A stretch of DNA of 43,388 nucleotides from a virus (lineage: Duplodnaviria > Heunggongvirae > Uroviricota > Caudoviricetes). Within the stretch, counting starts at the first letter, position 1. Every line of letters begins with the position of its first letter. Below, piece after piece: positions 14,601-43,370 of this stretch. The position numbers and the translations under genes are program-made. The stretch lies in IMG/VR virus record IMGVR_UViG_2698536418_000010. One strand, written 5' to 3'. The notes under the pieces are model-generated. The model was not told the origin of the DNA. It did not search any database and was given only the letters and a program-made list of their open reading frames with translations.

Positions 14601-14609
14601 AAGCAGGCT

Positions 14610-14765
14610 ATGAAGCAGCAAAAGGCGATGTTAGTCGCCCTGATCGTCATCTGTTTAACCGTCATAGTGACGGCACTGGTAACGAGGAAAGACCTCTGCG
14701 AGGTACGAATCCGAACCGGCCAGACGGAGGTCGCTGTCTTCACAGCTTACGAACCTGAGGAGTAA
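14610..14765 (+). CDS. hok: Hok/Gef-family type I toxin (51 aa)
   Basis: MKQQKAMLVALIVICLTVIVTALVTRKDLCEVRIRTGQTEVAVFTAYEPEE; in-frame upstream extension from 14553 (mok-like). Confidence 0.9.
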   Translation: MKQQKAMLVALIVICLTVIVTALVTRKDLCEVRIRTGQTEVAVFTAYEPEE

Positions 14766-15956: not shown

Positions 15957-16246
15957 TGGTGGATTTACGTAAAGCGGCGCGGGGGCAGATGTGCACCGTC
16001 AGAATTCCTGGCTACTGCAATCACAATCCCGAAACTTCTGTGCTGGCGCATTACAGGCTGGCGGGGACGTGCGGAACAGCGACAAAACCACACGATATGC
16101 AGGCAGCGATTGCCTGTAGCTCATGCCACGATTTAATCGACGGGCGGGTAAAAAACAGCGATTACACCAAAGAAGAATTACGCCTGATGCATGCAGAAGG
16201 TGTTTTTCGCACACAAGAAATCTGGAGAAAGGAAGGTTATTTATGA
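15956..16246 (+). CDS. YbcO-like (DUF1364) putative nuclease, Cys-rich
   Basis: CTVRIPGYCNH…CSSCHDLIDG; overlapping stop/start with neighbours. Confidence 0.8.
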   Translation: MVDLRKAARGQMCTVRIPGYCNHNPETSVLAHYRLAGTCGTATKPHDMQAAIACSSCHDLIDGRVKNSDYTKEELRLMHAEGVFRTQEIWRKEGYL

Positions 16247-16797
16247 TTTACCCAACAAATACAGGCAAAAGCGGGGAACACCTTCGTCTCACCACGCTGG
16301 AAAGTGTCTGGATTCAGGGAAAACTGCGCATGTGGGGGCGCTGGTCGTATATTGGCGGCGGTAAGACGGGAAATATGTTTAACCAGTTGCTGGCATCCAA
16401 AAAATTGACGAAAACAGCCGTCAATGAAGCCCTGCGCAGGATGAAAAAAGCGGGAATAGAGAAACCTGAGCTGGAAGCGTTTTTGCGAGAGATGATCAAT
16501 GGCAAGCAAAAGACCTGGCTGGCGCATTGTACTGATGCAGAGGCGTTATGTATTGATAGAGTCATAAGTGAGGTGCTAGCAGAGCATCCTGGATTGATTA
16601 GTGTCCTCCGGCAACGGTATGAAGGACGGGGGATGACTAAGCGCAAAATGGCTGAATTGCTAAATGATGCACACCCTGAGTGGTGTTTTCGGACGTGCTG
16701 CAGTCGGGTAGATGTATGGCTAAATCTTGCTGAATATATGCTCTATCTGCCGATGCGTGATGCATTCTCTTCCGGGTATTTAAAAACTGTCTGTTGA
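16243..16797 (+). CDS. Late-gene antiterminator Q-like
   Basis: Position after YbcO-like gene, ATG 16243 overlapping stop; Qin QuuQ-like sequence. Confidence 0.8.
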   Translation: MIYPTNTGKSGEHLRLTTLESVWIQGKLRMWGRWSYIGGGKTGNMFNQLLASKKLTKTAVNEALRRMKKAGIEKPELEAFLREMINGKQKTWLAHCTDAEALCIDRVISEVLAEHPGLISVLRQRYEGRGMTKRKMAELLNDAHPEWCFRTCCSRVDVWLNLAEYMLYLPMRDAFSSGYLKTVC

Positions 16798-16885
16798 CTC
16801 AATCTGTTATCCGGGGCTATATTCCTCACGCGCCAGCAAAATCTGGCGTCGGGATTAGGAACCCCGGATAGAGACCGCGACAGAC

Positions 16886-16908
16886 ACACGCCGCGAGCGT
16901 GTTTTTTA
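16886..16908 (+). terminator. Rho-independent terminator (acacgc-cgcga-gcgtgt + T6), candidate tR'
   Basis: Stem-loop followed by tttttt, about 90 bp after Q. Confidence 0.65.
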
Positions 16909-17070
16909 TTGTCGTATGCACGCGCACATCTGAATTATGGTGGGGCGTATGGGGGAGCTGAAAAGCTCGCCGGTTGGTTTCCCGGTAGTTCCTAACCCTG
17001 TACGTCTCACCACCCGATGATTAGGAACCTGACGGTGGTGATGGTTTAGAAACCACCAGAGGGCGTCATT

Positions 17071-17652
17071 ATGACAACTCAAATTTCTGTTGAAACTCTC
17101 TCCCCGATCACCCATAACCAGATTCCTGTTATTACCACCGAACTTTTGGCGCAGTTGTACGGTGCTGAAGTTAAGAACATTCAAAATAACTACGCCAGAA
17201 ATGCTGAGCGCTTTATTGAAGGAAAGCATTTTTTCAAAGTGGCTGGTGATGCCCTGAAAAATTTGCGGGTAGCTTTAAACTACTCACAAAATTTGCAACC
17301 ATCTTTAAGAGGGTTACAAATTTCCCCGAAAGCCCGCTCCCTCATCCTCTGGACAGAACGCGGAGCAGCCCGTCATGCCAAAATGCTCGAAACCGATCAG
17401 GCGTGGGATGTGTTCGAAAAGCTGGAAGACTGCTATTTCAGACAAAAGGATCCGTCAGCGCCAGTTTCATGCCAGAAAAGTTACGACACGCGAGTTCTCT
17501 GTTATCAGCGAGGCGGTGTCACTGTTTCCACAATTCAGTTGCGGGATGATGATATTGTTATTTCCCTTGAGTCATGGCTGGAACTGGCGAGAGCCAATGG
17601 TTGGTTTGTTGTTCGCAGAGATAAACTGGTGGAAAGGTTGATGCAGCTTTAA
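17071..17652 (+). CDS. ORF6N-domain protein (antirepressor-like)
   Basis: N-terminal ORF6N-like motif …NQIPVITTELLAQLYGAEVKNIQNNYARNAERFIEGKHFF…. Confidence 0.75.
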   Translation: MTTQISVETLSPITHNQIPVITTELLAQLYGAEVKNIQNNYARNAERFIEGKHFFKVAGDALKNLRVALNYSQNLQPSLRGLQISPKARSLILWTERGAARHAKMLETDQAWDVFEKLEDCYFRQKDPSAPVSCQKSYDTRVLCYQRGGVTVSTIQLRDDDIVISLESWLELARANGWFVVRRDKLVERLMQL

Positions 17653-18025: not shown

Positions 18026-18148
18026 TTTAAGGCCGCAGACAGGCCCATTTAGTGCAACGCTTTTCCCCGTTTCCGCTCCTGGAATATTCGGGGATTTTTT
18101 ATTCCCTCAATTTGCACCCGCGATATGTGCGAGGTGAGAGATGATGAA

Positions 18149-18484
18149 ATGCCTCATAACCCAAATACCTGGCCGGACTGGCTGGAGTTGTTTCAGAGCT
18201 GGTGGCGTGGAGACACACCGCTGGGTGCAGTGATTATGTCGATCGTTATGGCTGGTTTGCGCATCGCCTATTTTGGCGGTGGTGGGGGCTGGAAACGAAA
18301 AACGCTTGAGATTTTGCTCTGTGGTGCCCTGACGCTGACCTTTGCATCCGCGCTTGAGTATGTCGGATGGCCTAAATCACTTTCTGTTGCCATTGGTGGT
18401 GGGGTGGGGCTGATTGGTGTCGATGCTATTCGTGGTGCGGCAATGAGGGTCATCGGTAACAAGTTCGGTGTCCATAAGGAGTAA
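18149..18484 (+). CDS. Holin, class I-like (3 TM); alternative upstream start at 18125
   Basis: GAGGTGA RBS 8 nt before ATG 18149; three hydrophobic helices, charged C-tail; directly upstream of endolysin. Confidence 0.8.
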   Translation: MPHNPNTWPDWLELFQSWWRGDTPLGAVIMSIVMAGLRIAYFGGGGGWKRKTLEILLCGALTLTFASALEYVGWPKSLSVAIGGGVGLIGVDAIRGAAMRVIGNKFGVHKE

Positions 18485-18487
18485 TTA

Positions 18488-18964
18488 ATGCAGACACTTA
18501 ATTCCCAGCGTAAAGCTTTCCTTGATATGGTGGCATGGTCAGAAGGAACAGATAACGGACGGCAGAAAACCAGAAATCACGGTTATGATGTTATTGTCGG
18601 TGGCGAACTGTTCACTGATTACTCCGATCACCCCCGCAAACTTGTCACGCTAAATCCGAAACTCAAATCAACAGCCGCCGGACGTTACCAGCTTCTTTCT
18701 CGCTGGTGGGATGCCTACCGCAAGCAACTTGGCCTGAAAGATTATTCCCCAGAAAGTCAGGATGCTGTAGCGCTGCAGCAGATTAAAGAGCGTGGCGCTT
18801 TACCGATGATTGACCGTGGCGATATTCGTCAGGCAATCGACCGTTGCAGCAATATCTGGGCGTCGTTACCTGGTGCAGGTTACGGTCAGTATGAACATAG
18901 AATCGGTGACCTGATTTCCCGATTTAAAGAAGCTGGTGGGGTGGTAAATGAAGCTGAGATATAA
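18488..18964 (+). CDS. Endolysin, lambda R-type lytic transglycosylase
   Basis: …NQRKAFLDMVAWSEGTDNGRQKTRNHGYDVIVGGELFTDYSDHPRKLV… near-identical to recalled lambda R. Confidence 0.9.
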   Translation: MQTLNSQRKAFLDMVAWSEGTDNGRQKTRNHGYDVIVGGELFTDYSDHPRKLVTLNPKLKSTAAGRYQLLSRWWDAYRKQLGLKDYSPESQDAVALQQIKERGALPMIDRGDIRQAIDRCSNIWASLPGAGYGQYEHRIGDLISRFKEAGGVVNEAEI

Positions 18965-19340
18965 GCTGGTTATTGTTGCCTTCTTTGTTACCGTCATCGG
19001 TTCTTTTATCTGGTATGCCGGGCATTACTACAGCAAATATCAGTACGAAAAGGAGCGTGCTGATGAGGCTGTACGAAATGCTGAATCTGCAACAGCCATT
19101 ACCAGTAACGTCCTGCAATCACTGCAAATCATCAATACAGTTATAGAGGCTAACCAGCATGCAAAACAGCAGATCGCACTGGAGTCACAGAGAACCCAGG
19201 AAGATATCAAAGTGGCTGTTGCGGATGATGATTGCGCTGTTCGTATCGTTCCTTCTGGCGCAGTTAAGCGGTTGCACGAATACGCGAACGGTATACGTGT
19301 CGGTGCCGGTCGTTCCGTTACCAGCCAGTCTGACGGATGA
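18948..19340 (+). CDS. i-spanin Rz-like
   Basis: N-terminal TM, coiled-coil-like region; follows endolysin. Confidence 0.7.
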   Translation: MKLRYKLVIVAFFVTVIGSFIWYAGHYYSKYQYEKERADEAVRNAESATAITSNVLQSLQIINTVIEANQHAKQQIALESQRTQEDIKVAVADDDCAVRIVPSGAVKRLHEYANGIRVGAGRSVTSQSDG

Positions 19341-19503
19341 AACACCCCAGCCAGATTTACCCGACCCGTTTACGTGGGGAGCCAGCCTTAACCTGAATGT
19401 TGCGTTGCTGTCAGCGTTAGCACAGTGCAACAGGGATAAGGCCGATATCAGGACTTTTGAGAAAAACAGGGCAGCACAAACCAATGGCACGATTAAACGT
19501 TGA
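19225..19503 (+). CDS. o-spanin Rz1-like lipoprotein, overlapped arrangement
   Basis: Starts inside Rz in the +1 frame; lipobox LSGC; proline-rich. Confidence 0.6.
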   Translation: MMIALFVSFLLAQLSGCTNTRTVYVSVPVVPLPASLTDETPQPDLPDPFTWGASLNLNVALLSALAQCNRDKADIRTFEKNRAAQTNGTIKR

Positions 19504-30792: not shown

Positions 30793-30980
30793 CGTTTAAC
30801 AGCCTGCCGGACGGGCTGTCCTACCTTCTCAATCCGGTTGACGCCGGGTTAATTCCTTATACAGCACTTAAAGATGGCTCTGTCGATTTGTATGACATTG
30901 CTCTCTTGAATGACCATCTGGCGGTAAAAGCGGATAACCAGCGACGCATTGAGAAATGGAGAGAGGATAATGAACGCTGA
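30340..30980 (+). CDS. Predicted -1 frameshift product of tail chaperone (G/GT-like), shift at TTTTTTG 30741-30747
   Basis: Heptamer in-frame as T_TTT_TTG; -1 frame open from the site to TGA at 30978-30980. Confidence 0.45.
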
Positions 30981-32958
30981 AACTATTAAAGATTTCCTCG
31001 TCTCGCTTGGCTTCAGTGTGGATGATGCAGGAGCGAAAAAGTTCGGTTCTGTCCTCGCCGGTACAACTGCAAATGTCATCAAAATGGGGCTGGCTGTTGA
31101 AGGAGCTGCGCTGTCCGTGGTGGCCTTCACGGCTAAGATCGCCTCCGGCCTGGATAATCTTTACTGGGCGTCACAGCGCACCGGCGCGACAGTCCAGGGA
31201 ATTCAGTCTATTGGCTATGCGGTTTCGCAGGTTGGCGGCAGCGTGGACGCTGCGCGATCTTCTCTGGAAAGCCTCTCCCGGTTTATTCGTAACAATCCCG
31301 GTGCAGAAGGCTTTCTGAATCGCCTGGGCGTACAGACCCGTGATGCCAGCGGTAACATGCGTGACATGGCCGCTATTTTTACGGGCGTTGGACAGAAACT
31401 CAGCAGCATGCCGTATTACCGGGCTAACCAGTATGCGCAGATGCTGGGCATTGACGAAAATACCCTTATGGCGATGCGCCGGGGTGTGGGTGGCTTCTCC
31501 GGGCAGTACAGCGCAATGGCGAAAGCTATCGGCTTCAATGCTGACGAGGCGGCCAGAAGCTCCAACAAATTTATGACCTCCCTGCGTGAGTTTGGCGCGA
31601 TGGCAGGCATGGCCCGTGACAAAATCGGCTCTAATCTTGCGGGGGGGCTTGCGGGTTCGCTGGACACCCTGCGCCGCCATATCCTGGACAACTTCCCTCG
31701 TATCGAGCAGACCCTGACGAAAGCCATAAAAGGCATTCTGGCGCTCGGGGATATTATTGGGCGGCTGTTCTTCAGACTGATTGAGGGGACATCAGGCCTT
31801 ATCACCTGGTGGCAATCGCTGGATAAGCAAACGCGGGAGTTGATCTCGCTGTTTGGCGCACTGACGATTGCGCTGCGCATTCTGAACAGTACGTTCTGGA
31901 TGTCGCCGATTGGCCTCATTACCGCGCTGGCGGCGGGTATTGCCCTCCTGTGGGAGGACTATCAGACCTGGAAGGAAGGCGGCGACAGCCTGATTGACTG
32001 GGGCAAGTGGAAACCGGAGGTCGATGCCGCGCTGAAGATGGTTCGTGACCTTAAAACGACCGTTAACGACCTGGTGAAAGCGCTGGCGAAACTGCTCAAT
32101 ATTGACCCCAAATCATGGTCCCTGAAGTGGGATTTCAGCAACTTCATCGACCAGATGGGCGAATTCAGCAAAATGCTGAACATGATCGCTGACCTGCTCA
32201 ACGCTATCAAAGATGGCCGCTGGGCTGATGCCGTCAGCATCGGCAAACAGATACTTAATCAGGGCAGCGAAAATCCGTCAGCGATGCCGATGGTTACAGA
32301 CAGCGCTAACAGTACTGCCGACTGGATTAAAGAGCACTGGGGATTCGATCCCCGCAGTGTGGGCCGGACGGTACGCGGCTGGTTTGGTGATGATGAGCCG
32401 GAACAACATGCACAGGCTACGAAACGAGGAGAACGGAATAACAATCCGGGAAACCTTAATTTTGCTGGTCAGGCAGGGGCTTCTCTTGAACGCCCGGGCG
32501 GGCGATTTGCCAGATTTGAAACTGCCTTTGATGGATTACGGGCTCTTGCTCGTCAGTTAATGCTGTACGCTGGACGGGGAATAAACAGTGTGGAGAAAAT
32601 TATCTCTACCTGGGCTCCTGCGTCTGATAATAACAACACAACTGCGTATATCAGGGCTGTATCGCAACGACTGGGAGTGGATTCCCGGGCTGCCCTGAAT
32701 ATGAGCGATCCGCAAACCATGTCAGCATTGATGAGCAGCATTATCCAGCATGAGAATGGAAGAAATATCTATTCTCGGGAGCTGATTAATAAGGCTGCCG
32801 TGGCGGGAATTAGTGGCAAAGTGACAGAGGTTAACCAGCAAAATACCTACCACATTTACGGTGGCGGAGATCCGCACGCTGTCGGTAATGAGGTTGCACG
32901 TCGGCAACAGTCTGCAAATGCTCAGGTCATGCGAAGTAATCAGGTGAGGGTGGGTTAG
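30970..32958 (+). CDS. Tail tape measure protein
   Basis: 662 aa, helical/Ala-rich, conserved position; GGAGAGAGG RBS. Confidence 0.85.
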   Translation: MNAETIKDFLVSLGFSVDDAGAKKFGSVLAGTTANVIKMGLAVEGAALSVVAFTAKIASGLDNLYWASQRTGATVQGIQSIGYAVSQVGGSVDAARSSLESLSRFIRNNPGAEGFLNRLGVQTRDASGNMRDMAAIFTGVGQKLSSMPYYRANQYAQMLGIDENTLMAMRRGVGGFSGQYSAMAKAIGFNADEAARSSNKFMTSLREFGAMAGMARDKIGSNLAGGLAGSLDTLRRHILDNFPRIEQTLTKAIKGILALGDIIGRLFFRLIEGTSGLITWWQSLDKQTRELISLFGALTIALRILNSTFWMSPIGLITALAAGIALLWEDYQTWKEGGDSLIDWGKWKPEVDAALKMVRDLKTTVNDLVKALAKLLNIDPKSWSLKWDFSNFIDQMGEFSKMLNMIADLLNAIKDGRWADAVSIGKQILNQGSENPSAMPMVTDSANSTADWIKEHWGFDPRSVGRTVRGWFGDDEPEQHAQATKRGERNNNPGNLNFAGQAGASLERPGGRFARFETAFDGLRALARQLMLYAGRGINSVEKIISTWAPASDNNNTTAYIRAVSQRLGVDSRAALNMSDPQTMSALMSSIIQHENGRNIYSRELINKAAVAGISGKVTEVNQQNTYHIYGGGDPHAVGNEVARRQQSANAQVMRSNQVRVG

Positions 32959-33545
32959 TGGATATTCTCTCTACACTTTTTCATCAGCAGAGCAGAAAAA
33001 TAGGAATGATTGTTCCCAGTGTTGTTATTTCAGAGAAGCATACAGATATGCTTGAAATAACCGAGCATCCGGTAGAGGTCGGGGCCGCTGTCGCTGATCA
33101 TGCCTATAAAAAACCGTCAGAAGTGGTGATGGAGGTTGGTTTCGCCGGTGGCGGCGCATTGCTGGATTTTGCCAGTAACCTGACGGCTACCAGCCTGCTC
33201 GGCCTGAGTCCTCAGCAGACGTATCAGGAGCTACTGGATCTGCAGGAAAGCCGTATCCCCTTCGATGTGGTAACCGGTAAACGGCTGTACAGCAACATGT
33301 TGATCCGGGCGCTGGAAGTGACGACGGACAAGACAAGCGAAAACGTCCTGTCCGCCGTCCTCACCCTGAGGGAGGTCATTATCTCCCGGACACAGCAGAT
33401 TACCGTCGCGGATAAAACCAACATGAAGGAAGGGGCCAGCACGTCGGCGGTACAGAACAGCGGCAACAAAACCACAAAACCTCCAGATACTTCACTGCTG
33501 AAAAGCATCACGGGTAACGTGGCGTCATTACTGGGGGGCGGCTAA
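32958..33545 (+). CDS. Tail protein (GTG start)
   Basis: Operon position after TMP. Confidence 0.6.
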   Translation: MDILSTLFHQQSRKIGMIVPSVVISEKHTDMLEITEHPVEVGAAVADHAYKKPSEVVMEVGFAGGGALLDFASNLTATSLLGLSPQQTYQELLDLQESRIPFDVVTGKRLYSNMLIRALEVTTDKTSENVLSAVLTLREVIISRTQQITVADKTNMKEGASTSAVQNSGNKTTKPPDTSLLKSITGNVASLLGGG

Positions 33546-33847
33546 TGACAATTCAGGAAATTCCGCTGACAGCGGACAACCAGCAGTTCAGCATCGTCCT
33601 GGGTGGTGTCACCTGGCGGATTAGCATCATATGGCGCGATCTGTACTGGATTATGGACCTGCAGAACGACAGAGGGGAGCCGGTAATCTCCGGTATTCCT
33701 CTCGTCACTGGTGCTGACCTGCTGGCGCAGTACGCCTGTATGGGGCTTGGTTTTAAGCTGGTGGTGGTCTGTGATGACAACACACAGGATTACCCCACAA
33801 AAACTGACCTGGGCTGTCGCAGCCATTTACTGGTATCAACGGAGTAA
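33545..33847 (+). CDS. Small tail protein
   Basis: Overlapping stop/start. Confidence 0.55.
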   Translation: MTIQEIPLTADNQQFSIVLGGVTWRISIIWRDLYWIMDLQNDRGEPVISGIPLVTGADLLAQYACMGLGFKLVVVCDDNTQDYPTKTDLGCRSHLLVSTE

Positions 33848-33849
33848 GC

Positions 33850-34914
33850 ATGTCACAGAACTGGATGAGACATTTCGAGCTGCAGCTTGTGGACGGGAAC
33901 GGTCAGGGAATTGAGCTAAGTGATTTTAAAGTCACCTTTACGATCGACTGGTTCAACATCAGCAGCGCGTCCCGGGTAGGGACTATCAAAATTTATAACC
34001 TCTCGGCAGATACTGTGAACCGAATCACCGGGCAGGAGTTTTCGAAAGTGCGTCTGATTGCCGGTTACGACGGTATCGCGCCGGAGGTGTCGGCAAGCGA
34101 CGTCGGGACCGTGCGGGAAGTTGACGCGGCGGACGTGGGTCAGAGTGATGGCCGCAACTACGGACTGATTTTCAGCGGTGAAATTCGCTACTCGGTCACA
34201 GGAAAAGACAGTCCGGTTGATTCCTACGTCCTGATTCAGGCAGCAGATACTGATCTGGCTTTTGCCACCAGTATAACCTCACAGACGCTGGCTGCCGGTT
34301 ACACGGTCGCTGATGTAAACCGTGCGCTGATGAAAGACTTCGAAGCCAAAGGTGCGACCGAAGGCCTGACGCCTGAAATGCCTGCTACTGTATTCCCCCG
34401 GGGGCGGGTACTCTTTGGCATGACGCGGCATCTAATGGATAACGTAGCCGGGCAATGTGGCGCAACATGGCAATTCGTGGACGGTCAGCGCCAGATGGTG
34501 GCGAATAACGAATATGTTCATGAAGCGATTGTGCTCAACAGCGCTACCGGGCTTATTGGCATGCCGCAGCAGACTATCGGTAACGGCGTAAACGTCCGCG
34601 CGCTTATTAATCCGAACATCCGGGTTAACGGACTCATTCAGCTGGATCAGGCTTCCGTGTATCGTACCGCCTTGTCGAACAACGATATTGCGATGGCTGG
34701 TGGTCAGATCACCGACCAGAACACGGATGGAAATATCACGCTAAGCGGCACCACATCGCAGCCTGCCAGCATCGCAACGGATGGCGTTTATATTGTGCGC
34801 GGTATTATGTACACTGGCGACACAAGGGGCCAGGCGTGGTACATGGATATGATGTGCTTTGCTCGAGGTGCTAGTGATATTCCTAGCCAGTCAGCGATGA
34901 ATCGAGGTGCATAA
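33850..34914 (+). CDS. Baseplate hub-like protein (Mu gp44/P-like)
   Basis: 354 aa, position before gpV-like spike. Confidence 0.65.
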   Translation: MSQNWMRHFELQLVDGNGQGIELSDFKVTFTIDWFNISSASRVGTIKIYNLSADTVNRITGQEFSKVRLIAGYDGIAPEVSASDVGTVREVDAADVGQSDGRNYGLIFSGEIRYSVTGKDSPVDSYVLIQAADTDLAFATSITSQTLAAGYTVADVNRALMKDFEAKGATEGLTPEMPATVFPRGRVLFGMTRHLMDNVAGQCGATWQFVDGQRQMVANNEYVHEAIVLNSATGLIGMPQQTIGNGVNVRALINPNIRVNGLIQLDQASVYRTALSNNDIAMAGGQITDQNTDGNITLSGTTSQPASIATDGVYIVRGIMYTGDTRGQAWYMDMMCFARGASDIPSQSAMNRGA

Positions 34915-34916
34915 TA

Positions 34917-35642
34917 GTGAGCAGGCTTGCGATAACCACAATCGTATTTTCTCTTTTTTTAACTTCATGTAGTTGGGATCCTAATGGTGCTAAAGCGCAG
35001 GAAAAATGGCTATCCCAAAAAAATGAAGAAAAACAAGCGTACGATAAGCAAGTTGAGGAGAGCCAGAAAAGCAGGCTTCAAATACAGCGCGAAGAAAAGT
35101 CTCAATTTGAAGTTTCACATCCAGAGGTTATCGTTGCTGGTGTTGGGAACGAGCTTAAAAGTAAGGGTGCAGAATCTTTGCGAGATGCGTACAACAGCAT
35201 TCCATTCGTAACTCGTTATCCGGGAACCACGGACCCTAACAAAGTTTATACCTATGTCGGTGACTACAAATTAAATTTGCAACTGGTTAACACATCTGTG
35301 CTTTCTCAGATCTCAGATTGCAAACGCATTTCAGCGTATGCCGATGTTGATATTAATCGTACTTGCTTCAATCAAATTGGAAATGATTTGAGTTTGTTTG
35401 CATCTGTAATTAAAGACAAAAATATTACTGGAATTGCCAAAAAAGCAGCTCTACGAGATTCAACTTACGGAACCAAAATTGATTTTGGTCATGCTGCGCG
35501 TTTAGCAAAAATGCATGCCACTTTATGCCAAAAGCAGGGCGGTAAAGGATTTGTCAAAATGTCGACTGTAGCTGTGCCTTGCGGCTCTTCAGGCGATGTA
35601 ATTAACTATCGAAGCGCCGGTAAGATGGGGCTTATAAACTGA
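34917..35642 (+). CDS. Lipoprotein moron (241 aa, GTG start, lipobox LTSC), low GC
   Basis: Signal peptide + Cys18; roughly 42% GC vs about 55% in flanks; own terminator. Confidence 0.75.
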   Translation: MSRLAITTIVFSLFLTSCSWDPNGAKAQEKWLSQKNEEKQAYDKQVEESQKSRLQIQREEKSQFEVSHPEVIVAGVGNELKSKGAESLRDAYNSIPFVTRYPGTTDPNKVYTYVGDYKLNLQLVNTSVLSQISDCKRISAYADVDINRTCFNQIGNDLSLFASVIKDKNITGIAKKAALRDSTYGTKIDFGHAARLAKMHATLCQKQGGKGFVKMSTVAVPCGSSGDVINYRSAGKMGLIN

Positions 35643-35666
35643 AAAGATCAAATTAGTCACATAAAA

Positions 35667-35688
35667 CCCGCCGGATGGCGGGTTTTTT
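35667..35688 (+). terminator. Rho-independent terminator (cccgcc-ggat-ggcggg + T6)
   Basis: Perfect hairpin followed by tttttt. Confidence 0.75.
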
Positions 35689-35707
35689 GCTTTCTGGAGC
35701 CTACTAA

Positions 35708-36460
35708 ATGGCAGTATCTGACCAGACCCGCTGCGGCGACCTTGCCGAAACATTCAAATCTGAACGGGAAACAACAAAGAACCAGATCCGTGTCGCCTTG
35801 CCTGGCATTATTCAGTCATTCGATCCTGATGCGGTTACGGCAGTTGTGCAGCCTGCTATACGTTCGGTTGAAAAGGATAATGACGGCAACCGCATTACCC
35901 AAAATTACCCATTGCTGGTGGATGTGCCAGTGGTATTCCCGCGCGGAGGAGGCTGTACGTTGACTTTTCCGGTAAAAGCCAGGGATGAGTGTCTTGTCGT
36001 TTTTGCCGATCGTTGTATTGATTTCTGGTGGCAGAACGGCGGGATACAGGAGCCTGTTGATGACAGAATGCATGATTTATCGGATGCGTTTTGTATTGTC
36101 GGTCCCCAGTCGCAGGCGAGGAAGATTAGCGGTATTAATACCAGTGCCACACAGTTGCGTAGTGACGACGGCAGCACCTATTTTGAGCTTAATCCTGACA
36201 CCAGGAAAATTAAAATTGTCGCTCCGGGTGGTCTTGATGTGGTTGCCCCTCTGGCTGATTTTTCTGAGAAAGTAACCATTCATGGCCTGTTAACCTGGAT
36301 GGGTGGCATGGTGGGGTCTGTTGTTTCTGGTGTGGCTTCAAAAATCACTGGTGCTGTTGAGTTCTTGGGGAGCGTTAAGGCTAACGGCAAGTCAATCGAT
36401 GATACGCACACTCATGGCGGTGTTCAGCGCGGTGGAAGCAATACCGATGGGGTAAACTGA
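35708..36460 (+). CDS. Baseplate spike protein (gpV / Mu gp45-like)
   Basis: 250 aa; conserved order V-W-J. Confidence 0.75.
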   Translation: MAVSDQTRCGDLAETFKSERETTKNQIRVALPGIIQSFDPDAVTAVVQPAIRSVEKDNDGNRITQNYPLLVDVPVVFPRGGGCTLTFPVKARDECLVVFADRCIDFWWQNGGIQEPVDDRMHDLSDAFCIVGPQSQARKISGINTSATQLRSDDGSTYFELNPDTRKIKIVAPGGLDVVAPLADFSEKVTIHGLLTWMGGMVGSVVSGVASKITGAVEFLGSVKANGKSIDDTHTHGGVQRGGSNTDGVN

Positions 36461-36813
36461 TGCGATACAGACGTGAAGACGCCGATGGCGATTACACCTT
36501 TGGCAGCGGTGATGACACCTGGCTGATTAACTCACCGGAGGCCGTGGCGCAGGCGGTAAAAACGCGATTCGAATTGTGGTATGGGCAATGGTTTCTCGAC
36601 ACCACCGAAGGGACTCCGTGGATCCAGTCCGTGCTCGGAAAGCAGAAGCCGGAAACCTACAACCTGGCGATCCGTAAGCGCATCCTCGAAACGCGGGGCG
36701 TTAAATCAATCCTCTCTTTCAATACGACAGTGGATACCACGACCCGACGTGTCATGTTTTCCGCTGAAATCGACACTCTTTATGGAATAACGACTGTTAC
36801 ATCGGAGGCGTAA
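36460..36813 (+). CDS. Baseplate protein gpW / gp25-like
   Basis: 117 aa, overlapping stop/start. Confidence 0.75.
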   Translation: MRYRREDADGDYTFGSGDDTWLINSPEAVAQAVKTRFELWYGQWFLDTTEGTPWIQSVLGKQKPETYNLAIRKRILETRGVKSILSFNTTVDTTTRRVMFSAEIDTLYGITTVTSEA

Positions 36814-38012
36814 TGGCTCTGAACCTTGATTCTCTCGGTTTATCTGCAAAGGTAACCGCGGAGGGGATCAGTGCGCCTGATTATCAGACGATACTCAGCA
36901 CCCTGATTAGCTATTTTCAGCAGATTTATGGCAGTGATGCCTACCTCGAACCGGACAGCAAAGACGGCCAGATGGTGGCTCTGATGGCGCTGGCGATTCA
37001 TGATGCCAATAATATGGCGATAACTGTCTACAACTGTTTTTCACCGGCAACCGGCTATGGGGCTGCACTGACCAGTAACGTGAAAATAAATGGTATTTCA
37101 CGTAAAGGCGCGACGAACTCTACGGTTGATTTGCTTCTTGCAGGAACTGCCGGAACAACCATCATTAATGGCAGCGTGAAAGACAGTAATAATGTGATAT
37201 GGCGTTTGCCTGCTTCAGTAGTGGTCGGCGTGGATGGTACAGTGATGGCGACCGCAACATGTTCCGTCAGTGGTGCAGTGGCGGCGCTGGCTGGAACTAT
37301 CACTGAAATTAATACGCCAACCCGTGGCTGGGTTTCGGTAACTAATCCTGCTGCGGCTACTGTGGGCACTCCGGCAGAAACTGACGCGGAGTTACGTATC
37401 CGTCAGTCGCAAAGTGTTGCGTTGCCATCAATAACCCCATTTGAAGCACTGGATGGTGCTGTTTCTAATGTTACCGGTGTAACCCGCCACAAACTCTATG
37501 AAAACGATACTGGTTCGGAGGACGGTAACGGGTTACCGCCACACTCTGTTGCTGTAATTGTGGATGGCGGTGATGTGACGGATATTGCTCAGGCTATCAG
37601 AGGGAATAAAGGCCAGGGGACAGCCACTCACGGTACAACATCCGTTACGGTTCCGGATAAATACGGCAATCCCCATGTAATCAAATTCTCGCGTTCCAGT
37701 GATGTGCCTGTTTATGCCCGGATTAAATTAAAAGTTTTTACGGGTTATACCTCACAGATAGGGCAGCAGATCCAGCAGGCTATTTCCGACTATATCAATA
37801 GTCTGATGATTGGTGATTCGGTCCTTTTAAGTCGCATTTACTCACCGGCGAATCTTGGCGTGGTGAGTGGCGGGAATGCACGCTATTACGATATTCAGGA
37901 ACTGACGATTGGGAAATCCCCGGGGGCTTTGTCGTCATCAAACATTGATATCAGATACAACGAATCTGCGTCCTGTACCCCGGAAAATATCGTTATAACG
38001 GTGGAGTCATGA
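36813..38012 (+). CDS. Baseplate protein gpJ / Mu gp47-like
   Basis: 399 aa. Confidence 0.8.
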   Translation: MALNLDSLGLSAKVTAEGISAPDYQTILSTLISYFQQIYGSDAYLEPDSKDGQMVALMALAIHDANNMAITVYNCFSPATGYGAALTSNVKINGISRKGATNSTVDLLLAGTAGTTIINGSVKDSNNVIWRLPASVVVGVDGTVMATATCSVSGAVAALAGTITEINTPTRGWVSVTNPAAATVGTPAETDAELRIRQSQSVALPSITPFEALDGAVSNVTGVTRHKLYENDTGSEDGNGLPPHSVAVIVDGGDVTDIAQAIRGNKGQGTATHGTTSVTVPDKYGNPHVIKFSRSSDVPVYARIKLKVFTGYTSQIGQQIQQAISDYINSLMIGDSVLLSRIYSPANLGVVSGGNARYYDIQELTIGKSPGALSSSNIDIRYNESASCTPENIVITVES

Positions 38013-38689
38013 GCAAATACACCGAACTAATCACGAACTACCACGCCACTAAACCTAAATTTCTTGCGCATGTTGATCTGATGACCCGGCCGCTTATTGA
38101 TGTTGCGGCTGCCACCAGAGGGCTGATTACTGCATTTGATATTGACTCTGCGGTTGGTGTGCAACTTGACATTCTGGGATTGTGGATCGGACGTAGCCGT
38201 GTTGTCAGCCAGCCTATCTCAGGTGTCTATTTCAGCTGGGATACCGACGGGCTTGGATATGATCAGGGGGTATGGCAGGGACCATACGATCCTGATTCCG
38301 GATACATGTACCTCAGCGATGAAACTTATCGTGTCATTCTTAAAGCGAAGATTGCGATTAATAACTGGGATGGACGGAATGATTCTCTTCCGGCAATTCT
38401 TGACGCTGCAACAGCAGGATCCGGGCTGCGAATGCAGATAGTCGATAACCAGGACATGACGATATCGGTCTGGGTCTTTCCTGATACTGATATTTCAGAT
38501 GTATCGCGTGAGTTAATTGCGGCAATTAAACAGGGGTATCTCACAGTAAAAGCCGCCGGGGTATGGGCGGGTGGCATTGAAACACCTTCGGTGGAAACCC
38601 CATCGGAAGGCTCAAAATTTTTTGGTTTTGATATGGATAACGAATTCATCAGTGGTTTTGATGTAGGAGCATGGGGAGTATTACTCTGA
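38009..38689 (+). CDS. Baseplate/tail protein (Mu gp48-like)
   Basis: 226 aa, precedes tail fibre. Confidence 0.7.
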
Positions 38690-39375
38690 TGGCGAAAAAT
38701 GACTTTAAAGCGTTTGCAACGGATCGAAATGCCAATGTTATGTCGCAGGAGGAATGGGAAGCGTTGCCTGCGCTTTTATCCGGATTTACAGCAGGGAAAG
38801 CATCCAGTGCGCAGGTGAACAAAGCCATTCGACAGGCCAGCTTTATTGCTGCAGCTCTGGCCCAGTTTGTAAGTGACAAAACGCAACGGGATGTGCTTGA
38901 TAATGGTGATCTGCCCGGTTTTGTTGAATTGCTTGGATCGGGGTTTGCTGTTGAATACCTGAGCCGCAAAAATCCGTTTGGCGATATCAAATCGGACGGC
39001 ACAGTGAAAACGGCTCTCGAAAACCTTGGTTTGGGAGAAGGCTCTGCATTACCGGTTGGGGTGCCTGTTCCGTGGCCTTCAGCCACTCCGCCAACAGGCT
39101 GGCTGAAATGCAACGGTGCCGCTTTTTCTGCTGAAGAATACCCGGAACTGGCAAAGGCTTATCCGGCAAATAAATTGCCTGATTTACGTGGTGAGTTTAT
39201 TCGTGGCTGGGATGACGGGCGTGGTATTGATGCTGTACGTGCCTTGCTAAGTCTTCAGAATGGAGGAGTGGAATCACACACCCACCAAGGGCAGCTCTTC
39301 AGAGTTAGTGATTATCGTACATATGTATGCAACTCGATGCCTGGGATGCTGAAACCAGTATCCCTGCCCTGCTAA
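38689..39375 (+). CDS. Tail fibre protein: constant N-terminal part + partial variable part, disrupted after codon …DYRT (about 39321) and fused out of frame to host-like sequence
   Basis: Residues from GEGSALPV… to …DYRT are identical to the minus-strand Sv copy at 42813-43310; divergent 17-aa tail; no tfa gene downstream. Confidence 0.7.
39022..39042 (+). promoter_or_regulatory. pix/gix-like recombination site inside tail-fibre gene (aaacc-tt-ggttt core)
   Basis: Palindromic core resembling recalled Gin/Pin crossover sites; same core at 41482-41493 and (inverted) 43309-43320. Confidence 0.45.
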
Positions 39376-39449
39376 ATGGCGAACACTCTGTCCTTTACCG
39401 TACCCGTTACGATCAACAATCTGATGCCTGGATTATGCGTCTTGCCTGA
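39322..39449 (+). pseudogene. 3' fragment of a host gene (yebV-like), truncated at the rearrangement junction
   Basis: Open frame …[37 protein letters not shown] starting exactly where tail-fibre homology ends. Confidence 0.3.
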
Positions 39450-39553
39450 TCCAAAAAGAACCCGTCGGCATGGCGGGTTATTTGTCCTGGTTATTCCCCC
39501 GTTGTAAAATCTCTCCTAAACTTAACGGTACGGCACCACACTTCGGGGATGAA

Positions 39554-39745
39554 ATGTTCGCGCTGGTACTTTTTGTTTGCTACCTGGATGGCGGTTGTGA
39601 AGATATTGTTGTGGATGTCTACAACACGGAACAGCAGTGTCTTTATTCTATGAGCGATCAACGGATCCGCCATGGCGGTTGTTTTCCGATTGAGGATTTT
39701 ATAGATGGTTTCTGGCGACCAGCACAGGAGTATGGTGATTTTTAA
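39554..39745 (+). CDS. YebW-like small protein (63 aa)
   Basis: MFALVLFVCYLDGGCEDIVVDVYNTEQQC…; matches my recollection of E. coli YebW next to pphA. Confidence 0.5.
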   Translation: MFALVLFVCYLDGGCEDIVVDVYNTEQQCLYSMSDQRIRHGGCFPIEDFIDGFWRPAQEYGDF

Positions 39746-40402
39746 TTATTGCAATTGCACAAGAGTCAGTTCGCCCCCAAAGACAGCACCGGTATCAATA
39801 TAATGCAGGTTGCCAATATCCACGCGATGTCGCAACGGTGTATGACCAAACCAGAAATGATCAGCACCTGTAATTCCCTGCCCTTTTTGGCGTTCACCTA
39901 ATCGCGAGCGGCTCCACAAGACCTGATGCAAATCAACGTCCTTTTGCCATTCATAAACATCATCTGGATAATCGGCATGAGCAATAACATGTTTGCCGGT
40001 ACGACTGTGTACTTCAAGAATAAAGGGCAAATGCTGACATTTTTCCAGCGCCGTTTTCGCTTGTTTCTGTTGATTATCTGCCAGCGCAATAAACCAGTCG
40101 CCGCCATTCATCAACCACAAAGACATCTGCTGGGATGCCAGCGCATCCATCGCCATCTGTTCATGATTGCCTCTTACCGCACGAACCCAATGTTGTTCCA
40201 GTAACTGCAGGCAACGTAAACTTTGCGGCCCACGATCGATAACGTCTCCCACTGAGATAAGTAAATCTCGCCACGGATCAAAACCACAATGCCATAATTT
40301 GCGGCGCAACTGCTCAAGACAACCGTGTATATCGCCAGAAAGCCAGATATGTCGCCATTGATGACCCGCAATTCTCTGATAAACGGGCGCAGGCTGTTTC
40401 AT
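39746..40402 (-). CDS. pphA: Ser/Thr protein phosphatase 1 (lambda-PPase family)
   Basis: Metallophosphatase motifs GDIHGC, GDVIDRG, GNHE; GGGAGG RBS; ATG at 40402 (track uses upstream TTG). Confidence 0.85.
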   Translation of the reverse strand: MKQPAPVYQRIAGHQWRHIWLSGDIHGCLEQLRRKLWHCGFDPWRDLLISVGDVIDRGPQSLRCLQLLEQHWVRAVRGNHEQMAMDALASQQMSLWLMNGGDWFIALADNQQKQAKTALEKCQHLPFILEVHSRTGKHVIAHADYPDDVYEWQKDVDLHQVLWSRSRLGERQKGQGITGADHFWFGHTPLRHRVDIGNLHYIDTGAVFGGELTLVQLQ

Positions 40403-40535
40403 CAATATTTTCCTCCCGCGCTAAAGATCACATAATCTTAACAAGAATGTTAAAAAACGCTGGACTCAGACAGTAGAGTGTGTGTTATGGTTGACTATAA
40501 AGTCAGCGAAGGAAATGCTTCTGGCTTTTAACAGA

Positions 40536-40866: not shown

Positions 40867-41420
40867 TCATTTATCTCCGACCGGAAACTTCTTATACAAA
40901 GTCGATACGCCAACATCATAGATGATCTCCACATTCTGGCGATGAACTCCTGATGCAATTAGTCGCCCGGCCTGCGCCCATTGTTCTGATGAAAGTTCGG
41001 GACGGCGACCGCCAATTCGTCCCTGTGCGCGAGCAGCTTCCAGTCCAGCTTTTGTTCGTTCAACAATCAGTTCACGCTCCATTTCAGCCAGGGCACCCAT
41101 GACATGAAAAAAGAAACGGCCATTGGGGTGCTGGTATCAATACTGTCAGTCAGGCTTCGGAAATTCACGCCACGCTGACGCAACTCTTCTATCAGCGTAA
41201 CAAGATGCCGCATACTGCGCCCCAACCTGTCCAGCTTCCAGACAACCAGAGTGTCTCCTGCCGATAGTGTCCTGAGCAGTTTTTTAAGCCCCGGTCTGTC
41301 GGACTTAGTGCCACTGATTTTATCCTCAAAAACCCGCTCACATCCCGCGCAGTTCAGTGCATTACGTTGCAGATCGGTGTTCTGGTCATTTGTTGATACG
41401 CGTACATAGCCAATAAGCAT
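40867..41420 (-). pseudogene. Pin/Gin-family serine DNA invertase, frameshifted (1-nt loss in G-run near 41120)
   Basis: N-terminal 109 aa (MLIGYVRVSTNDQNTDLQ…SIDTSTPM) and C-terminal HTH part (MGALAEMERELIVERTKAGL…) are in different frames; window reads atggccgtttc where a functional pin would need atgggccgtttc. Confidence 0.8.
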
Positions 41421-41493
41421 GTTAAATCCCCTTGGTAAAAGCAGGAATGATGCCATTTGCTTGTTATTTCTGCATTTTCATAAACGTTGGTTT
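41414..41493. repeat. Left inverted repeat of invertible segment (pin start + pix site)
   Basis: 80 bp identical to reverse complement of 43309-43388. Confidence 0.85.
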
Positions 41494-41797
41494 AAGAGCA
41501 AGCGGGCAGTACACCGATAATTTGTTATTTACAGGTCCTGATGGTCTTAAGATTCAGGTGTTTCGCCGGACGCTCGCAAATTTGACTACTGTCGGTGTAG
41601 TAAATTCTGTGCCAGTGACTTTCCCTGTCCCGTTCCCTGTTAATTGCTGGGGCGTTTTTTCTACCAAATTAACATGGGTTCAGATAACTAACTCATGCGA
41701 GTGGGTAAGCAATACAGGATTTACCGCTCAGGTCATGATGAATATTGCTGTAAATACAAACACCTCAGACGCTATGTTTTTAGCTATAGGATATTAA
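41432..41797 (+). CDS. Tail-fibre variable C-terminal cassette Sv' (promoterless); first about 21 codons are read-through of the inverted repeat
   Basis: Open frame entering from the pix site; followed by tfa; N-terminus MVKAGMMPFACYFCIFINVGL is shared with the other cassette. Confidence 0.6.
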   Translation: MVKAGMMPFACYFCIFINVGLRASGQYTDNLLFTGPDGLKIQVFRRTLANLTTVGVVNSVPVTFPVPFPVNCWGVFSTKLTWVQITNSCEWVSNTGFTAQVMMNIAVNTNTSDAMFLAIGY

Positions 41798-41798
41798 T

Positions 41799-42239
41799 AT
41801 GAATCGTTTTGTGTTCAGTCCATCTGAGTCCCGTTTTTATGCCATCGAGTGGCAGGCTGATTATGTTGATAATAATTGTTGGCCACATGATGCCATTAAC
41901 GTTAGTGACAGCATTTATTATGAGTTTTCCGGCACTCCCCCTACAGGTAAGCAACTTATAACTTTAAATAACATGCCAGCATGGGGTGATATTCCTCCAC
42001 TTACACGAGAAGAATTAATTGTCGCTGCTGATGTGGAGAAGCAAAAAAGAATAGATTTAGCCAATGATTACATGAACGGTAAGCAATGGCCTGGTAAAGC
42101 AGCTATTGGTCGTCTGAAAGGTGAGGAACTGGCACAATATAATTTGTGGCTGGATTATCTGGGCGCACTGGAGCTGGTCGATACCGCCAGTGCGCCAGAT
42201 ATTGAATGGCCTACGCCTCCGGCAGTTCAGGCCAGATGA
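41799..42239 (+). CDS. Tail fibre assembly protein Tfa'
   Basis: 146 aa; C-terminal …APDIEWPTPPAV motif; starts 1 nt after Sv' stop. Confidence 0.8.
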   Translation: MNRFVFSPSESRFYAIEWQADYVDNNCWPHDAINVSDSIYYEFSGTPPTGKQLITLNNMPAWGDIPPLTREELIVAADVEKQKRIDLANDYMNGKQWPGKAAIGRLKGEELAQYNLWLDYLGALELVDTASAPDIEWPTPPAVQAR

Positions 42240-42813
42240 CATCCGGCGCGGTGCTGGTATCTGTTGCCGTCACCGCGTCAATGTAATCCAGCACAGTGTT
42301 AAGGCTGGTTGTTTCTGCCTGCGTCAGTTTACGTCCGGCCTGCAATTTCAGCTGAATCAGACTGATTGAAGCCATTGCAGTATCAATCAGTGACTGGCGC
42401 TGTGCTTCTGCTGCATCTACTGCGGCGCTATGCTGTGCTTCGGTATCCGTCACCCATTTCTCACCATCCCATTTATCGTATGGCGTTAACGGGGCGATAG
42501 TGGTTGTATTATCAGGGTAATCACCCGGAGCTGTGATTTCTTTTGATTCTCCTGTTTCGGTGCTAAAGACGATTTCACCGCGATGGTCTGGCACATATTC
42601 CCATGAGTTAAAATCTACAGATCGGCAGATTGCATAACCAGCTTTGTATGTGCCAGGGGCATCTAAACAGGAATATGCAGGGATACCGATACCAACGGCA
42701 AGATATTCAGTTGATGTGGAAATATATTCCCGTGTTTCGCCATCATAGTTATAGACGGTAATATTCCCCGCCTTTGTAGCAATAAACTCGCTATTTAATA
42801 CAGCGTTATCCAT
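42211..42813 (-). CDS. Tail fibre assembly protein Tfa
   Basis: 200 aa; C-terminal …APDVIWPELPEA; convergent with Tfa'. Confidence 0.8.
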   Translation of the reverse strand: MDNAVLNSEFIATKAGNITVYNYDGETREYISTSTEYLAVGIGIPAYSCLDAPGTYKAGYAICRSVDFNSWEYVPDHRGEIVFSTETGESKEITAPGDYPDNTTTIAPLTPYDKWDGEKWVTDTEAQHSAAVDAAEAQRQSLIDTAMASISLIQLKLQAGRKLTQAETTSLNTVLDYIDAVTATDTSTAPDVIWPELPEA

Positions 42814-43370
42814 TATGCAGCCCTCACGATATAGTTAAATGCAATATTCCGTGGACGGGTTTCATTTATCCCATATGCTGTTGTTCTCTGATTCCCGACA
42901 AAATATCCATTTGGATTAGAAGATACAGGATAATCATCAAAATCAAGTGGGCTATCAGCACCCGGCGTCAGGCTTGCAATATATCCTCTTCCCATAACTT
43001 CTGATGCTGGTATTTCTTTTGTACGATAATCACTAACTCTGAAGAGCTGCCCTTGGTGGGTGTGTGATTCCACTCCTCCATTCTGAAGACTTAGCAAGGC
43101 ACGTACAGCATCAATACCACGCCCGTCATCCCAGCCACGAATAAACTCACCACGTAAATCAGGCAATTTATTTGCCGGATAAGCCTTTGCCAGTTCCGGG
43201 TATTCTTCAGCAGAAAAAGCGGCACCGTTGCATTTCAGCCAGCCTGTTGGCGGAGTGGCTGAAGGCCACGGAACAGGCACCCCAACCGGTAATGCAGAGC
43301 CTTCTCCCAAACCAACGTTTATGAAAATGCAGAAATAACAAGCAAATGGCATCATTCCTGCTTTTACCAA
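42813..43370 (-). CDS. Tail-fibre variable C-terminal cassette Sv (full length; 5' part duplicated in the fibre gene at 39027-39321)
   Basis: Open frame entering from right pix site; contains the identical GEGSALPV…DYRT region then a 68-aa C-terminus. Confidence 0.65.
   Translation of the reverse strand: MVKAGMMPFACYFCIFINVGLGEGSALPVGVPVPWPSATPPTGWLKCNGAAFSAEEYPELAKAYPANKLPDLRGEFIRGWDDGRGIDAVRALLSLQNGGVESHTHQGQLFRVSDYRTKEIPASEVMGRGYIASLTPGADSPLDFDDYPVSSNPNGYFVGNQRTTAYGINETRPRNIAFNYIVRAA

Follow-up and report, generated by a model that had tools for sequence, protein, structure and literature searches.

In the virus sequence IMGVR_UViG_2698536418_000010 (Caudoviricetes; IMG/VR), a 43,388-nucleotide stretch of DNA referred to here as the window, a gene for a 241-residue lipoprotein lies between the baseplate hub gene and the spike gene of a prophage with a contractile tail. 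This lipoprotein represents an uncharacterized family without a convincing fold relative, and it occupies a structured cargo slot in which it alternates with a protein of the unrelated family phrog_3443; neither the lipoprotein family, nor the hub–spike slot, nor a role for phrog_3443 is described in the literature that we searched. Its N-terminal sequence indicates that the protein is almost certainly exported and lipidated. By analogy with phage lipoproteins that disable receptors, we tentatively favour a role as an envelope-level exclusion or protection factor, in the broad sense, a reading to which we give somewhat less than an even chance. The gene, its encoded parts and the borders of the slot are as follows.

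34917 to 35642, plus strand: lipoprotein coding sequence, with a GTG start and 241 codons plus stop, backed by the list of open reading frames (ORFs), the call of the Prokaryotic Genome Annotation Pipeline (PGAP), dN/dS and homologous clusters.
34904 to 34907, plus strand: Shine–Dalgarno sequence GAGG, 9 nt 5′ of the GTG and within the coding end of the hub gene, read off the sequence.
34917 to 34970, plus strand: predicted signal peptide (residues 1–17) and lipobox L-T-S-C up to Cys18, assigned by the lipobox rule, with Cys18 invariant in alignment A1.
34980 to 35117, plus strand: long, charged, K/E/Q-rich α-helix (residues 22–67) in the AlphaFold2 (AF2) model, with pLDDT of 87–94 over most of its length; a putative spacer or tether.
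35118 to 35639, plus strand: α/β globular domain (residues 68–241) with HPE, FVTR, C135-x-R-x-SAY, C150, FGHAARLA-MH, C204 and C222.
33850 to 34914, plus strand: baseplate hub gene (phrog_196 'baseplate hub', 6.8e-88; PF22759 E217_GP41, weak, 6.2e-05).
34857 to 34914, plus strand: the ~18–19 codons that close the hub gene, variable and travelling with the cassette; the left recombination border.
35663 to 35692, plus strand: intrinsic terminator hairpin and U-tract, the right border of the slot, directly 5′ of the ribosome-binding site of the spike gene.
35708 to 36460, plus strand: gpV-like membrane-puncturing spike gene (PF18352 N-domain, 6.8e-43, and Apex motif PF18946).

The sequence-only reading of this stretch had proposed a 241-residue ORF that starts with the GTG at 34917, carries the lipobox LTSC and lies between a hub-like and a gpV-like spike gene. 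All of these elements were recovered: the ORF in the ORF list, the lipobox by its pattern and the flanking genes by their matches to phrog_196 and to the spike domains. The GTG is situated 2 nt past the TAA stop codon of the hub gene. The identical coding sequence is called by PGAP in identical E. coli prophages (WP_029399670.1), under the name 'hypothetical protein' or 'HMG-box domain-containing protein'. The latter label is seen in some RefSeq genomes, for example at 2618–3343 of locus L005 (NZ_CM136170.1); it is probably a spurious domain call, of which the K/E/Q-rich helix may be the cause, and the lipoprotein has no NCBIfam or Pfam match. In comparisons with three relatives, pairwise dN/dS was 0.11–0.16 for the lipoprotein versus 0.04 for the hub. 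The lipoprotein gene is real and under purifying selection, and evolves approximately 3–4 times faster than the hub gene.

The composition of the gene differs from that of its neighbours, as had been noted from the letters alone. Its GC content is 0.409 and its GC content at third codon positions (GC3) is 0.343, versus 0.537 and 0.594 for the hub and 0.502 and 0.486 for the spike, and its GC3 is below that of the flanking genes in all five loci tested. Moreover, GC3 is 0.24–0.41 in every diverged homologue, including that of a Limnobaculum prophage with 45% GC. Because low GC3 persists in all lineages, the low GC is a standing trait of the family and not a sign of recent import. In locus L010, synonymous divergence is comparable in the lipoprotein gene (dS of 0.85) and the adjacent hub gene (0.64), which, together with the persistent low GC3, rules out recent horizontal import from a low-GC donor.

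The N terminus, MSRLAITTIVFSLFLTSC, conforms to a PROSITE-type lipobox rule: it contains Arg3, an h-region free of charged residues and LTSC, which ends at Cys18; the stretch MSRLAITTIVFSLFLTS-C18 is the part that matches the lipobox pattern. The rule calls for a positive n-region, an uncharged h-region and [LVI][ASTVI][GAS]-C, with the cysteine at position 15–35. Cys18 is invariant within alignment A1, and 31 of 50 retrieved family proteins conform to the strict rule. In E. coli, the residue at position +2 determines membrane sorting under the Lol rule. Because this residue is serine in the window protein and is aspartate in none of the 31 lipobox-bearing family members, sorting to the outer membrane is predicted; taken together with the AF2 model, the +2 rule predicts a protein anchored in the outer membrane with a stalk and a domain in the periplasm.

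The AF2 model was obtained from shallow alignments of 12–14 sequences but is nonetheless of high confidence, and comprises the lipid anchor, a helix of 46 residues and a globular domain with four cysteines. At an estimated 1.5 Å per residue, the helix would be approximately 7 nm long. The mature protein has 223 residues, and its C-terminal domain is soluble and free of a C-terminal transmembrane segment. Among close relatives, the invariant positions are Cys18, HPE (68–70), FVTR (97–100), C135-x-R-x-SAY, C150 and a helix with the motif F-G-H-A-A-R-L-A-x-M-H, and C204 and C222 are almost invariant; across the whole family, the only invariant cysteine pair is C135/C150. The presence of four cysteines in an exported domain suggests two putative disulfides. 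No convincing fold match was found for the modelled globular domain, and profile searches of the PDB with alignments A1, A2 and A4 returned only noise and a designed helical filament.

The family is rare. Among 5.8 billion proteins, only 15 clusters of it were found, with a lowest identity of 41% and with Escherichia, Citrobacter koseri and a Budviciaceae genome as named sources. A profile search of 1.84 billion found 36 representatives, and the named sources of the family are all Enterobacterales. A pattern scan of one genome per species (185,579 species) located three loci, in Serratia, in Limnobaculum and in an Enterobacterales metagenome-assembled genome. Family members vary in architecture. 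Long variants of 330–378 residues have an additional N-terminal domain behind the lipobox, and short, soluble variants have an ordinary signal peptide; the latter include F8 (176 residues), which the family profile recognizes with an E-value of 6.8e-14, and gp67 of Hafnia phage yong1 (136 residues).

In line with the sequence-only reading, the protein matches no known family. At E ≤ 0.1 it falls into no Pfam family, it has no meaningful NCBIfam match, and a PHROG search returned only insignificant matches of unknown function (E ≥ 0.005). PADLOC assigned no family to the lipoprotein or to six alternative slot proteins, and for 26 diverse family members a Pfam search at E ≤ 10 turned up no more than scattered, isolated matches. 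In translated searches (tblastn) of 50,697 phage records, neither the window protein nor the long form P0022 found a match, and the family member P0043 found a single one, gp67 of Hafnia phage yong1.

The local gene order is Dit-like, Pam3-gp18-like plug, hub, spike, gpW-like wedge subunit and Baseplate_J, and the family gene lies directly 3′ of the hub and 5′ of the spike in every locus with enough flank (~39 loci), down to 36% identity. The loci comprise five places encoding the exact protein, 29 from IMG/VR, two of the three genome loci and Hafnia phage yong1, with long forms and soluble variants included; two short contigs in the set cover the hub side only. This one position is shared across Escherichia, Citrobacter, Serratia, Limnobaculum and Hafnia. 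The lipoprotein family is thus tied to one position, and the gene is no free-roaming moron.

To describe the slot itself, we surveyed the 80 best hub matches among 516 viral contigs that encode a related hub; these are E. coli-like prophages, and 75 of the loci have a hub at least 96% identical to that of the window. In these 75 loci the hub–spike gap measures 687–1,855 bp and occurs as 61 distinct sequences, in which at least 15 arrangements of genes can be told apart. In all of them the gene next to the hub carries a predicted export signal: F0 (phrog_3443) in 61 of the 75, the lipoprotein in seven and F8 in seven. F0 is a signal-peptide protein of ~112 residues that is usually not lipidated, and phrog_3443 has no annotated function. 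Where the lipoprotein is present it is the sole slot gene (seven of seven loci), and behind F0 or F8 lies varying cargo, such as a YafO-toxin pair (F5–F6), a DUF4282 membrane protein, a DUF2335 membrane protein, or two-gene sets F2/F3 plus F1, which have no family match. Among 305 complete E. coli genomes that have the flanks, 12 carry the lipoprotein.

The lipoprotein and phrog_3443 share the same post-hub position and envelope export, but their sequences are unrelated, and phrog_3443 proteins are half the size and usually not lipidated. Homology between the two was ruled out (hhalign probability of 0.7%), and a full phrog_3443 gene occurs in none of 38 family loci. The two families are therefore unrelated and mutually exclusive, and they replace one another. 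C-terminal remnants of phrog_3443, 23–26 residues in length, lie directly behind the family gene at 4303–4371 in Hafnia phage yong1 and at 6553–6630 in loci L039–L041, and look like scars of gene replacement.

The borders of the replaced segment can be located. Homology to phages with other cargo (689R2, YP3 and SEN34) stops at 34856/34857, within the hub gene and 57 nt from its end, and starts again at 35661, which delimits a cassette of approximately 34857–35660. The hub ends in the peptide CFARGASDIPSQSAMNRGA in seven of the seven loci that carry the lipoprotein and in a different sequence where the cassette is of another type; this co-variation could be border hitch-hiking or a functional link between hub and cargo. 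In a comparison of 23 distinct loci, no gene of the module has diverged as far as the lipoprotein, whose mean identity is 50% versus 58–74% for the others; its divergence follows that of the hub (Spearman 0.58) and the plug (0.53) more closely than that of the spike (0.36), although the spike is equally adjacent. Swaps are evident in individual loci: in L025 the hub is 92% identical and the lipoprotein 48%, and in L017 the lipoprotein is 100% identical and the spike 69%.

Gaps in more distant phages were also inspected. In Burkholderia phage Magia, whose hub is 30% identical, the gap (3457–3828 of locus L132) holds a 123-residue signal-peptide protein on the opposite strand; export-signal proteins thus appear to recur in the hub–spike gap across bacterial orders. 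The gap of a Klebsiella prophage contains an apparent distant F0-like protein, as judged by eye only.

The right border of the slot is the terminator. The hairpin at 35663–35686 has a 10-bp stem and a GGAU loop and is followed by U6; its folding energy is −18.2 kcal/mol (z = −3.25 versus shuffles). It is present in 14 of 15 slot architectures, varying in the loop only; among the variants, one keeps pairing by G–U wobble and one has a shorter stem with a UUCG loop. The same hairpin is found in Serratia locus L043, and a terminator-like hairpin lies behind the gene in locus L007. The strong hairpin predicted at approximately 35667–35688 is therefore present, but it is not the gene's own: because it stands in the conserved right flank across different cargo, it belongs to the slot. 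The label 'moron' was accordingly retained in part, since the minority presence (seven of 75 loci and 12 of 305 genomes) and the deviant composition agree with it, whereas a terminator that belongs to the slot and the confinement to one position do not. No RNA family was matched by Rfam in 33.5–37 kb.

The hairpin is placed inside the late tail operon, before the spike ribosome-binding site, and this arrangement is kept across E. coli and Serratia prophages. Expression of the spike, wedge and fibre genes would need antitermination, or else the hairpin would serve some other purpose, for example stoichiometry control or use as a recombination anchor. An antiterminator candidate is encoded upstream.

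16123 to 16797, plus strand: candidate Q-like late antiterminator (PF06576 DUF1133, 5e-108; PF06530 Phage_antitermQ, 26.7 bits against a cut-off of 26).

Late transcription is probably Q-antiterminated, which would carry it past the hairpin at 35663 and on into the spike gene and the rest of the baseplate genes.

Position in the baseplate cluster and probable late co-transcription are the only features that would make the lipoprotein a component of the virion or of tail assembly, or the spanin of the phage, and we consider either role highly improbable. A Sec/Lol-exported lipoprotein cannot enter tail assembly in the cytoplasm. Near-identical tails carry the unrelated phrog_3443 protein instead, and in Providencia phage PSTCR3 and the virulent Salmonella phage ZCSE2 the hub is immediately followed by the spike, with nothing between. 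As these two phages do without a slot gene, the tail does not need one, and the lipoprotein is accessory and not structural; a conserved virion component, which the sequence-only reading had named as the finding that would overturn it, is not what we observed. Slotless relatives and non-homologous replacement rule out a structural component. The spanin role is contradicted by the lysis genes of the phage.

18125 to 19503, plus strand: lysis cassette, ~15 kb upstream of the lipoprotein gene and downstream of the Q-like gene.
18125 to 18484, plus strand: lambda-family holin (TIGR01594, 9.9e-38).
Within 18125 to 19503, plus strand: 158-residue ORF in the endolysin position, without a family match itself; a collinear prophage is annotated GH24 there.
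Within 18125 to 19503, plus strand: Rz-like ORF (DUF2570, weak, sub-threshold).
19159 to 19503, plus strand: Rz1-like LysC lipoprotein (PF23793, above threshold).

Because the phage has its own spanin candidate in this separate cassette (holin, Rz-like ORF and Rz1-like LysC), a spanin of the Rz1 type or of the T1 gp11 type was ruled out. The lipoprotein also lacks a C-terminal transmembrane segment, and its 241 residues exceed the small size of outer-membrane spanins (o-spanins).

Accessory lipoprotein genes are common in prophages, and the closest functional analogues are Cor (of T1, phi80, N15 and HK022) and Llp (of T5). These proteins disable receptors and act at the envelope against further adsorption, and in small siphoviruses such exclusion factors are encoded beside the tail-tip hub or receptor-binding locus (PMC11990801); for the window lipoprotein, such an action is a reasonable analogy. 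The likeness is that of phage lipoproteins of the infected or lysogenic cell that are encoded beside tail-tip or host-recognition genes. By contrast, no sequence similarity to Cor or Llp was found in Pfam, in PHROG or by tblastn of the 50,697 phage records, the mature window lipoprotein, of 223 residues, combines a long helix with a domain of four cysteines, and its phage has the hub and spike of a myovirus, not a siphovirus tip. Cor and Llp are proteins of ~60–80 residues that act from the periplasmic face of FhuA.

Two further precedents concern prophage genes. Ltp of Streptococcus phage TP-J34 is a prophage lipoprotein that brings about superinfection exclusion at the cell surface (PMC3952083). 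Ltp and HK97 gp15 resemble the window lipoprotein in being prophage-encoded and membrane-associated, but neither is homologous to it; Ltp is Gram-positive and located in the lysogeny module, and gp15 is an inner-membrane protein and no lipoprotein. Ltp acts after adsorption on the tape-measure protein, and HK97 gene 15 is a moron located among the tail genes. The moron concept comes from lambdoid phages (PMC3594210; Juhala/Hendrix; lambda bor and lom, HK97 gp15). The window gene is like these morons in being an extra gene of deviant composition in a late structural operon, which close relatives lack and behind which an intrinsic terminator stands; its phage likewise has a Q-type antiterminator. 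It differs in that no promoter was detected by a crude scan, the terminator is that of the slot, and the family is found at one position only, where it has diverged to 36% identity. As the sequence and fold tests fail, the lipoprotein is not a member of the Cor, Llp or Ltp families, but by analogy it probably works like an exclusion protein of this type.

In the mechanism that we tentatively favour, Sec export and lipidation would anchor the protein in the inner leaflet of the outer membrane, where the rigid helix of ~46 residues would hold the disulfide-stabilized domain out in the periplasm, so that exclusion or protection would be exerted from the periplasmic side. By one route, the phage's own receptor would be inactivated in the fashion of Cor and Llp. 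By another, the penetrating tail tip of incoming related phages, either the spike or the transglycosylase-annotated tape-measure protein, would be intercepted. With no promoter found and a gene that abuts the hub stop codon, the protein would probably be made at least from the Q-antiterminated late transcript. Exclusion is favoured because phage lipoproteins beside tail-tip genes (Cor and Llp) do this and Ltp likewise excludes, and because the slot goes with temperate members, an association qualified by PSTCR3, which also lacks it. The existence of unanchored, soluble variants indicates a target that can be reached from the periplasm. The character of a conflict gene is suggested by a slot that is recombination-bounded and multi-allelic and by a lipoprotein that is the fastest-evolving in the module.

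Several observations weigh against exclusion. Neither in sequence nor in fold was the lipoprotein found to resemble Cor, Llp, Bor, TraT, Spackle, Ltp or PADLOC defence proteins, and it is approximately three times the size of Cor and Llp. The signal-peptide and lipobox calls derive from pattern rules and not from SignalP or LipoP. Cassette types and spike types do not pair: the lipoprotein occurs with spikes that are 68–100% identical to that of the window, and because the two do not co-vary there is no sign of a matched pair of exclusion factor and target on the spike side. Finally, a crude consensus scan found no sigma-70-like promoter on the plus strand in 33500–37000, and in related loci the promoter matches of the same scan did not exceed shuffle expectation and showed no positional conservation. 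Expression in the lysogen, a hallmark of exclusion genes in prophages, is therefore unsupported by the promoter scan.

The evidence on timing is divided. Hub coupling and the lack of a promoter favour late expression, whereas the conserved terminator and the AT-richness would fit lysogenic expression. The protein might instead be a late lytic helper that blocks the receptor on the dying cell or its debris, thereby sparing progeny virions, with no role in the lysogen; such a role is stated for Cor and Llp in virulent phages (PMC11990801). The tight coupling to the hub gene (a 2-nt gap and a Shine–Dalgarno sequence inside the hub end) and the absence of a detectable promoter are consistent with it, and a Q-like antiterminator would carry late transcription past the slot terminator. 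Moreover, the first slot position is always occupied in the prophage clade, which is more suggestive of a function in the life cycle than of an optional gift to the host. However, PSTCR3 and ZCSE2 are relatives that have no slot gene, a conserved downstream terminator and persistent AT-richness are typical of morons expressed in lysogens, and the promoter scan is a crude consensus tool. We judge a purely late role to be unlikely.

The architecture of the protein raises a further alternative, in which it would be a periplasmic inhibitor or immunity protein directed at an envelope-attacking or peptidoglycan-degrading enzyme, such as a tape-measure transglycosylase or an effector of a type VI secretion system (T6SS) or tailocin. 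It would then resemble Spackle, LprI or T6SS immunity proteins and would not mask receptors. A disulfide-rich, periplasm-facing protein that exists in lipoprotein or soluble variants is consistent with this idea, and the predicted 7-nm helix would put the domain near the peptidoglycan. The tape-measure protein of the prophage is a lytic transglycosylase according to PGAP, and one of 26 family members has a sub-threshold match to T4_Spackle (PF25676; E of 0.031). However, a single match at E of 0.03 among 26 proteins is at chance level, and the window protein itself has none. PF07007 (LprI), the model of a domain of three helices and conserved cysteines, was matched by none of the 26 members, even at E up to 10, and direct evidence of lysozyme inhibition by the LprI domain is lacking (PMC7933661), which also counts against an inhibitor. 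Compared with T4 Spackle, LprI/DUF1311 and T6SS immunity proteins (TsiV3), the window lipoprotein fails to match the Spackle and LprI Pfam models, has no relative in PDB profile searches and gives fold scores within noise. An inhibitor of this kind is improbable on this evidence.

The tape-measure gene (30949–32958) is annotated 'lytic transglycosylase catalytic' by PGAP in identical prophages, and in the window it gave only a weak match to Pfam PhageMin_Tail. The protein is a candidate target of a periplasmic inhibitor that would be encoded two genes downstream.

A last alternative places the function outside phage conflict altogether, as a lipoprotein of host fitness or virulence that would confer serum resistance in the manner of Bor or TraT, adhesion or tolerance of envelope stress. 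The protein is a prophage-borne, predicted outer-membrane lipoprotein close to TraT in size, and its carriers include E. coli isolates from humans, cattle and companion animals. Lambda Bor, cited in PMC7067206, is a precedent. By contrast, the protein matches neither Lambda_Bor nor TraT, nor indeed any other Pfam family, at E ≤ 0.1, a single tail-module position across very different hosts argues for a phage-centred function, and the soluble periplasmic variants are not surface proteins. A host-fitness role is thus a rather poor prospect.

Exclusion at the envelope could also be organized at the level of the slot. We consider it an outside possibility that the post-hub position is a modular 'envelope-immunity' locus of temperate contractile-tail phages, in which phrog_3443 and the Cys-rich family alternate, and that the stalk of ~7 nm parks the domain at the peptidoglycan, where it would neutralize the spike or the tape-measure transglycosylase and possibly tailocins or T6SS. 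If true, this would be a periplasmic, post-adsorption exclusion mechanism new for Gram-negative prophages.

The remainder of the window describes the phage in which the slot resides. The first 22 kb correspond to a Rac-like lambdoid prophage beside yebY (87% coverage and 96% identity), and the structural module encodes a contractile tail of the SEN34 (Brunovirus) type. The same tail module with the same lipoprotein is also found on a lambda-like backbone integrated at ybhC; as two backbones share one tail module, the module moves between prophage backbones. Rfam matches comprise SdsR/RyeB and SraC/RyeA at 1–104 (host flank or attachment region) and RalA antitoxin RNA, DicF and sok (1666–1844, 6584–6635 and 14463–14612), typical cargo of Rac/Qin-type lambdoid prophages. 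At 16817–17652, isrK and a C4 antisense RNA with an a1/b1 target lie upstream of an ORF6N-domain ORF (17071–17652); this arrangement between the Q-like and lysis genes resembles an antisense-controlled antirepressor module of the P1/P7 type.

At the other end of the prophage (38671–40405), the tail-fibre ORF after DUF2612 encodes only 234 residues (Collar domain) and is followed by a 91-residue ORF and then by a minus-strand metallophosphoesterase resembling host pphA. The end of the prophage may lie near 39.7 kb, and the fibre may be truncated, so that the prophage could be defective. A remnant of a second element occupies 41067–43370. It includes a fragment of a resolvase/invertase N-domain on the minus strand (41067–41456), a fibre C terminus and a tail-fibre assembly gene on the plus strand, and an inverted tail-fibre assembly gene with a Collar-domain fibre on the minus strand, and looks like an invertible tail-fibre segment.

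Envelope proteins encoded by prophages determine the phages, and possibly also the contractile weapons, to which a lysogen is vulnerable, and are thus relevant to host range in phage therapy and to competition between E. coli strains. To our knowledge, envelope-level exclusion factors of myoviruses are poorly known. A slot that swaps two unrelated exported proteins offers an isogenic comparison of one allele, the other allele and no allele, and could reveal a new exclusion mechanism for myoviruses. Should the lipoprotein prove to be an ordinary receptor blocker, a likely role would still be assigned to two families of hypothetical proteins, which supply the first slot gene in 75 of the 75 surveyed loci.

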